Shown: one piece after another, positions 61,196 through 62,141 of the stretch | Numbering within the stretch: position 1 is the first letter of the stretch | Layout of the letters: each line of letters starts with the position of its first letter | Assembly (NCBI RefSeq): GCF_003334785.1 | Contig: NZ_QOWV01000001.1 | Source of the DNA: Escherichia coli | Lineage (GTDB): Bacteria > Pseudomonadota > Gammaproteobacteria > Enterobacterales > Enterobacteriaceae | Length of the DNA: 64,000 bases | Direction: 5' to 3' (one strand) | Made by a program: the position numbers and the translations under genes | Notes under the pieces: model-generated | What the model was told of the DNA's origin: nothing | Databases searched by the model: none | Seen by the model: the letters and a program-made list of their open reading frames with translations, nothing else

Positions 61196-62141
61196 TTACA
61201 GAGTTTCCTCAAAGAACGGAGCTAATACTGAAATTGCTTCAGCCACATAGGCTTTGCCGTCATAAAGATCCATATGGTTTGCGCCTTCAACAATGTGATA
61301 GCGTTTATCCTGGCTTGATGCTCGATCGTACAGGTCGTCACTCATCCATTTGCTCCCTGCCTGGCTGCCCGCCACAATCTGCGTCGGCTGAGTCAGGTAC
61401 ACTTCCGCCATATGGTAAGCATCATAGGTAATAATCTGGTTAAGGCTGCGCAAAGTAGCGTAACTTAAGGCTGCGCAAAGTAGCGTAACCCGGTGCTGTT
61501 GGATACTGCGCGCGAGGGGTGTGGTAATACTCCCAGGCCTGACGCAGTTCTTCGTTCGGCGCATCGGACTCCTTCATTGGTGCCAGTGGCATAATGGCGT
61601 ATTCTCCGCTGCTAATATCGCTGGTTCTGGCGTTTGAACCCGCTTCAACGTATGGCAGGGCATCAATAGATTTCACATTGTTTTCCCAACCATTACGGAA
61701 TATCGAACCAATATTGACCGCACTAACGGTACCGATGGCCTTGATGCGGCGATCCTGAATTGCAGCATTGGCTGTATATCCTGCACCGGCACAAATTCCC
61801 ATCGCACCAATTCGGGTATTGTCGACATAAGAAAGCGTTGTCAGGTAATCAATCACGGCACTGATGTCTTCAGTACGAATGTATGGGTTTTCTAACTGAC
61901 GCGGCTCGCCGCCACTTTCACCTTGATAAGATGCGTCATAAGCAATAGTGACAAATCCCTTTTCCGCCAGTTTTTTGGCATAGGTTCCGGCCGTTTGTTC
62001 TTTAACGCCCCCACCTGGGTGAGATAACACAATTGCCTGATACTGACGGGTTTCATCAAATTTTGGAGGGAAATAGATCACTGCAGACAAAGAGATGGTT
62101 GGATTATTGCTGTTAGTGAAGCTGACTTTATTATTCATCAT
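61196..62141 (-). pseudogene. ycjY: Alpha/beta-hydrolase YcjY, disrupted by a 25-bp tandem duplication (frameshift)
   Basis: Track ORFs 61440..62153 and 61196..61564 overlap across the duplication and both encode YATLRSL; removing one 25-bp copy gives a continuous ORF (306 aa from MMNNK at 62141, SD GAGGA upstream). Confidence 0.85.
61440..61489. repeat. Perfect tandem duplication, 2 x 25 bp (ttaaggctgcgcaaagtagcgtaac)
   Basis: Two identical adjacent copies at 61440-61464 and 61465-61489. Confidence 0.95.

Follow-up and report, generated by a model that had tools for sequence, protein, structure and literature searches.

Does a perfect tandem duplication that cuts a hydrolase gene of Escherichia coli in two reflect an error in one assembly, a reversible switch or an inherited loss of the gene? 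The question is raised by ycjY in a 64-kb stretch of E. coli DNA, the whole of which is called here the window and to which all coordinates refer unless stated otherwise. ycjY is the first gene of the ycjY-ymjD-ymjC-mpaA operon, which is regulated by PgrR (PMC5934670), and the overexpression of YcjY results in filamentation (PMC3614548). The reading we propose, to which we give a probability of about 0.9, is that the window carries an inherited loss-of-function allele of ycjY, which would have been generated by one 25-bp duplication and would then have spread by descent in a clonal group.

Results

Anatomy of the duplication and reading frame of ycjY

The 25-nt unit TTAAGGCTGCGCAAAGTAGCGTAAC occurs twice, head-to-tail, at 61440-61464 and 61465-61489, and Tandem Repeats Finder gives 2.0 copies with 100% matches, so that the perfect 25-bp tandem duplication reported within ycjY by the first-pass annotation is borne out by the sequence and by the program. 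This pair is the sole perfect tandem repeat of the 64-kb window; with up to three mismatches tolerated, no third site for the 25-mer was found in the window, and 100 shuffles gave 0 matches. The run of period-25 identity is exactly 50 nt, which means that there is neither a partial third copy nor a base common to the ends and the flanks of the pair.

The whole ycjY pseudogene occupies 61196..62141 on the minus strand and measures 946 nt (921 + 25). Its counterpart in K-12 MG1655, b1327, encodes a 306-aa protein described as 'putative hydrolase YcjY' and contains the 25-mer once. The deletion of one unit from the window leaves a 921-nt CDS with 0/921 differences from b1327, and hence the window's ycjY has no lesion other than the duplication. 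The neighbours are also those of K-12 (mpaA, ymjC, ymjD, ycjY, the divergent pgrR, and mppA), as expected of the orthologue. The first-pass annotation had named the gene ycjY, had attributed its frameshift to the 25 bp, had predicted a single ORF of ~306 aa after the deletion of one copy and had proposed a comparison with the reference gene; the match to b1327, the single 25-mer copy in K-12 and the 306 aa obtained from the K-12 start are in agreement with all of this.

In the orientation of the gene, the first copy of the unit (61465..61489, minus strand) keeps the native frame and gives (G)YATLRSL, and the second (61440..61464, minus strand) is read in a shifted frame as (K)LRYFAQP and closes on a premature TAA at 61442-61440, made of its own final three bases. 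The 5' ORF, which lies on the minus strand at 61440..62141 when counted from the K-12 start (61440-62153 in full), ends with ...GYATLRSLKLRYFAQP*, and its 233-aa product consists of 225 native YcjY residues followed by the tail KLRYFAQP. The 3' part of ycjY (61196..61441, minus strand, codons 226-306) is out of frame with the start, and a downstream ORF of 122 aa (61196-61564) holds ...SYATLRSLNQIITYD... in the native frame. The ORF translations thus confirm that the stop lies eight codons into the second copy and that the downstream part is open in the other frame, as had been described. With 25 nt more than K-12 and than the nearest genomes lacking the duplication, and with a TAA 8 codons downstream, the window's ycjY is a frameshift pseudogene, and the two ORFs should be merged in the annotation into one pseudogene rather than kept as two small hydrolase genes.

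Distribution of the two-copy allele

Of 5,426 complete E. coli genomes, 52 matched a 40-nt query spanning the junction of the two copies, each at a single site that was always chromosomal; these and other genomes with the duplication are referred to as carriers. The exact 233-aa protein (P0001) is encoded by 1,000 contigs or more, whose sources include NCBI, ENA, Logan and JGI. The sources of the carriers range from humans, chickens and pigs to a dog, an opossum, a crow, cucumber, lettuce and wastewater, and their places of isolation are spread over Asia, Africa, the Americas and Europe; the old collection strains ML35, NCTC9041, NCTC9087 and NCTC9100 also belong to the carriers. In each carrier record inspected, PGAP marks ycjY as 'frameshifted', with a pseudogene length of 946 nt. 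The allele is in this way already annotated as frameshifted in public RefSeq genomes.

The qualification of the duplication as 'recent', made at first sight of the sequence, is misleading: the allele is common to many hosts, countries and old collection strains. The carriers differ by only a few SNPs per 48 kb, a level at which 50 bp should remain identical, and the perfection of the two 25-nt copies is for this reason uninformative on their age.

Neighbouring genes and other variants

pgrR (ycjZ), which encodes the divergent LysR-type regulator, a repressor, of ycjY-ymjD-ymjC-mpaA, is found intact at 62279..63178 on the plus strand, with a private R210H substitution due to a G>A change at 62907, where 12/12 compared relatives encode Arg. 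The carrier O157:H16 98-3133 has an independent 1-nt deletion in pgrR (window-equivalent 63042), which PGAP marks as frameshifted. At the other end of the operon, downstream of ycjY, the murein tripeptide amidase gene mpaA (60133..60861, minus strand) is intact, and MpaA is WP_000219122.1 in every carrier and non-carrier record inspected, except in the carrier VE-F10 (WP_063123451.1). Between ycjY and mpaA lies ymjC, a 60-aa ORF (60943-61125, minus strand) annotated by PGAP as 'NAD-dependent dehydratase, incomplete', which is an old gene remnant common to K-12, carriers and non-carriers.

Farther from ycjY, the D-glucoside 3-dehydrogenase gene ycjS presents at 47398 a run of four A where 12/12 compared relatives have five (GCGAAAAACC); the frame is shifted after ~102 codons, for which either a genuine mutation private to the window or a sequencing error in the homopolymer may be responsible. 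A private G>T with respect to 12/12 compared relatives is located at 35016, in puuB by position. The carrier RM10410 has an insertion of ~11 kb in the region equivalent to 39500-64000, with a capsid-protease fusion gene and a primase gene, which looks like a satellite or a prophage, and in ML35 a copy of IS421 adjoins ymjA (positions 1-67 of the ML35 locus, L005).

Haplotype background of the carriers

When a 24.5-kb flank was used as the query, the best 50 genomes were all carriers and the next-best spans were exactly 25 bp shorter. In an alignment of ~48 kb that comprised the window, 7 other carriers and the 5 nearest non-carriers, no site but the duplication separates carriers from non-carriers, the remaining variants being private SNPs or indels, or changes common only to two non-carriers. 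A SNP linked to the duplication was sought in the 48 kb, and none was found; the flanks are too conserved, so that the local haplotype cannot by itself prove the monophyly of the carriers. With an independent 24.5 kb as the query (window 1-24500), 13 of the best 60 matches are carriers, as against ~1% of the collection.

Taken together, these data are in keeping with the duplication having arisen once, within one K-12-like clonal group, which would be the parsimonious reading given the identical endpoints of the duplication, the absence of microhomology (see below) and the single haplotype background. The same parsimony makes a recurrence of the duplication, or its spread by recombination, unlikely. 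The non-carriers whose flanks are identical to those of the carriers could be ancestral or revertant.

Consequence for the YcjY protein

YcjY, an alpha/beta hydrolase of the COG1073 type, gives Pfam matches to Abhydrolase_1, DLH, Peptidase_S15 and Peptidase_S9, the Abhydrolase_1 match covering residues 36-287; NCBIfam yielded only sub-threshold matches to YcjY, which do not point to a specific enzymatic function. The structure of YcjY is PDB 5XB6, on which a literature search returned nothing relevant, and PA2218 (2HDW) is a homologue of solved structure. The nucleophile elbow G-I-C117-A-G (G-x-Nu-x-G) is kept in the 5' ORF of the two-copy allele. The truncation interrupts the frame and costs 81 residues (226-306), among which is G-A-N-H281-M-D283; the H281-x-D283 motif is conserved in PA2218 and falls inside the Abhydrolase_1 match. 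From this conservation and from the general architecture of the alpha/beta hydrolases, a catalytic role would be attributed to His281. The loss of the C-terminal 81 residues, including His281-x-Asp283, would make the 233-aa product very probably inactive.

Further decay of ycjY

The two-copy allele has gathered more disabling lesions in several carriers, a sign of relaxed constraint. Three of them, VE-F10, PEC399 and NZ_OZ121069, contain a second perfect tandem duplication, of 56 bp and with 1 nt of microhomology, upstream in ycjY (1996-2108 of the VE-F10 locus, L001; window-equivalent ~61645-61700). The two insertions add up to 81 nt (25 + 56), a multiple of 3 that is in frame overall, and a restoration of the frame was considered and rejected, two stops between the duplications keeping the gene broken. 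The carrier NCTC9100 has a 12.4-kb deletion that begins within ycjT and takes away the 3' end of ycjY (760-763 of its locus, L016; window-equivalent 48881-61303), with a junction overlap of 4 nt, and that removes ompG, ycjW, ycjX, ycjF, tyrR, tpx, ycjG and mpaA.

Truncated forms of YcjY are also found outside the two-copy allele. A 240-aa frameshift form (P0018), present in EC1865 among others, diverges after residue 194 and is encoded on at least 1,000 contigs, and truncations of 155, 127 and 82 aa (P0004, P0005 and P0006) are encoded on 83-112 contigs each. The non-carrier PEC1009 has an independent 1-nt deletion in ycjY (window-equivalent 61706), which PGAP marks as frameshifted. The independent lesions in other lineages and the continued decay among the carriers make ycjY look like a dispensable gene under relaxed selection, and its fate in the window is a case of ordinary gene decay.

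Discussion

The model we propose for the origin of the allele starts from an ancestor with a K-12-like ycjY, in which a single head-to-tail duplication of 25 bp would have arisen inside codons 218-226. Its likely cause would be an error of replication or repair unguided by direct repeats. The resulting +1 shift of the frame would end the translation 8 codons later and would generate a 233-aa product that keeps the Cys117 nucleophile elbow and misses the C-terminal 81 residues of the alpha/beta-hydrolase core. The allele would then have been passed on vertically within one phylogroup-A-like clonal group, a spread made possible by the dispensability of ycjY.

As for the event itself, the first-pass annotation had suggested a slipped-strand or microhomology event. 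The period-25 identity run shows that the ends of the duplication have 0 nt of microhomology, which does not back this suggestion and argues against a classical slippage between direct repeats. A 5-bp inverted repeat, GGTTA...TAACC, flanks the 25-nt unit, and a hairpin-driven mechanism was examined and discarded, the predicted folding (dG -5.1 kcal/mol and z -0.74 for the plus strand; z -0.31 for the other strand) being weak and no better than that of shuffled sequences.

Could the duplication exist only in the assembly, the real genome having a single copy? Mis-assembly can yield perfect short tandem duplications, and the private loss of 1 nt in the A5 run of ycjS is a possible sequencing error of the window, but the identical junction is present in the 52 independently sequenced complete genomes and the truncated protein on contigs of several sources, and the artefact, which had been left as an option when the duplication was first noticed, is in effect refuted and has next to no chance of being the explanation. 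We attribute an equally negligible probability to the idea that the pair is the footprint of a mobile element, i.e. a target-site duplication left after insertion and excision. The sharp ends of a direct duplication devoid of microhomology would suit such a footprint. To our knowledge, however, the target-site duplications made by insertion sequences and transposons in bacteria measure ~2-14 bp, a range exceeded by the 25 bp observed here, and the excision of a mobile element normally leaves no clean tandem copy; furthermore, no intermediate bearing an element was seen among the matches inspected. That the two pieces of ycjY would form a functional split gene, or that a programmed frameshift or a reinitiation would restore a useful product, is extremely improbable. 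It is true that the 122-aa downstream ORF is sometimes called by gene callers (P0016, 65 contigs) and that a 314-aa in-frame version of the protein (P0027) is found on one contig. The 122-aa ORF, however, begins ~35 codons out of frame within the upstream ORF, the division puts the Cys117 elbow and the His281 motif of a single alpha/beta-hydrolase domain on different pieces, PGAP regards the gene as a pseudogene, and further disruptions are tolerated; as to P0027, it is limited to that single contig and requires an extra 1-nt change. In this 59.9-kb ENA contig, the 25-bp duplication is accompanied by a -1 shift farther upstream, after residue 190, which leaves ~35 residues out of frame, and P0027 could be a compensated allele or a sequencing error.

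A different possibility is that the repeat works as a switch, the number of 25-bp copies turning ycjY on (1 or 4) or off (2 or 3) through recurrent gain and reversion. Perfect direct repeats of 25 nt are a substrate for RecA-independent deletion, by which a return to one copy is mechanistically possible, and the non-carriers with identical 48-kb flanks could be such revertants. Against this, the match spans fit exactly two copies in 52/52 carriers and a synthetic three-copy query matched spans of 50 nt only, so that the alleles seen are those with one and with two copies; the carriers stay within one haplotype background and are enriched among the closest relatives of the window; the single-copy sequence has neither a microhomology nor a significant hairpin to drive a repeated gain; and the carriers gather further lesions in ycjY, as in a dead gene. 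We consequently hold the switch to be highly improbable. A more restricted proposal, in which the two-copy allele would be a reversible off state from which YcjY could be regained by a precise deletion or by compensating frameshifts (P0027-like, 25 + 56 = 81 nt), is in our eyes very improbable; if it were true, ycjY would persist in the lineage as a latent but switchable hydrolase related to peptidoglycan, and not as a dead gene.

The proposed inherited loss of function of ycjY by one 25-bp duplication is of little consequence outside typing and annotation. The additional 25 bp would provide a clean and easily typed marker of one K-12-like E. coli clonal group that includes ML35, a classic strain of the laboratory, and the two-copy allele adds to the evidence that ycjY, although it heads an operon of peptidoglycan recycling, is dispensable and repeatedly lost in nature.

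The comparison with known alleles and systems situates the locus. ycjY of K-12 has a single 25-mer and an intact ORF, whereas the allele of the window has two copies and a stop after 225 native residues plus 8. The RefSeq 'frameshifted' alleles of ML35 (C1I23_RS12155), EH09-18-41, NCTC9087 and O157:H16 98-3133 have the same junction, the same 946-nt length and the same flanks as the window, from which they are indistinguishable at the locus, the window having only three private changes elsewhere. The 240-, 155-, 127- and 82-aa forms are likewise truncated alpha/beta hydrolases devoid of the C-terminus, but their lesions fall after residues 194, 126, 121 and 81 and none of them is the 25-bp duplication. 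Finally, as in the phase-variable contingency loci of Neisseria and Haemophilus, an intragenic tandem repeat sets the reading frame of ycjY. The simple-sequence contingency loci consist of long arrays of 1-8-nt units whose copy number changes frequently, whereas ycjY combines two copies of a 25-nt unit, has been seen with one or two copies only, and has the duplication in one lineage.
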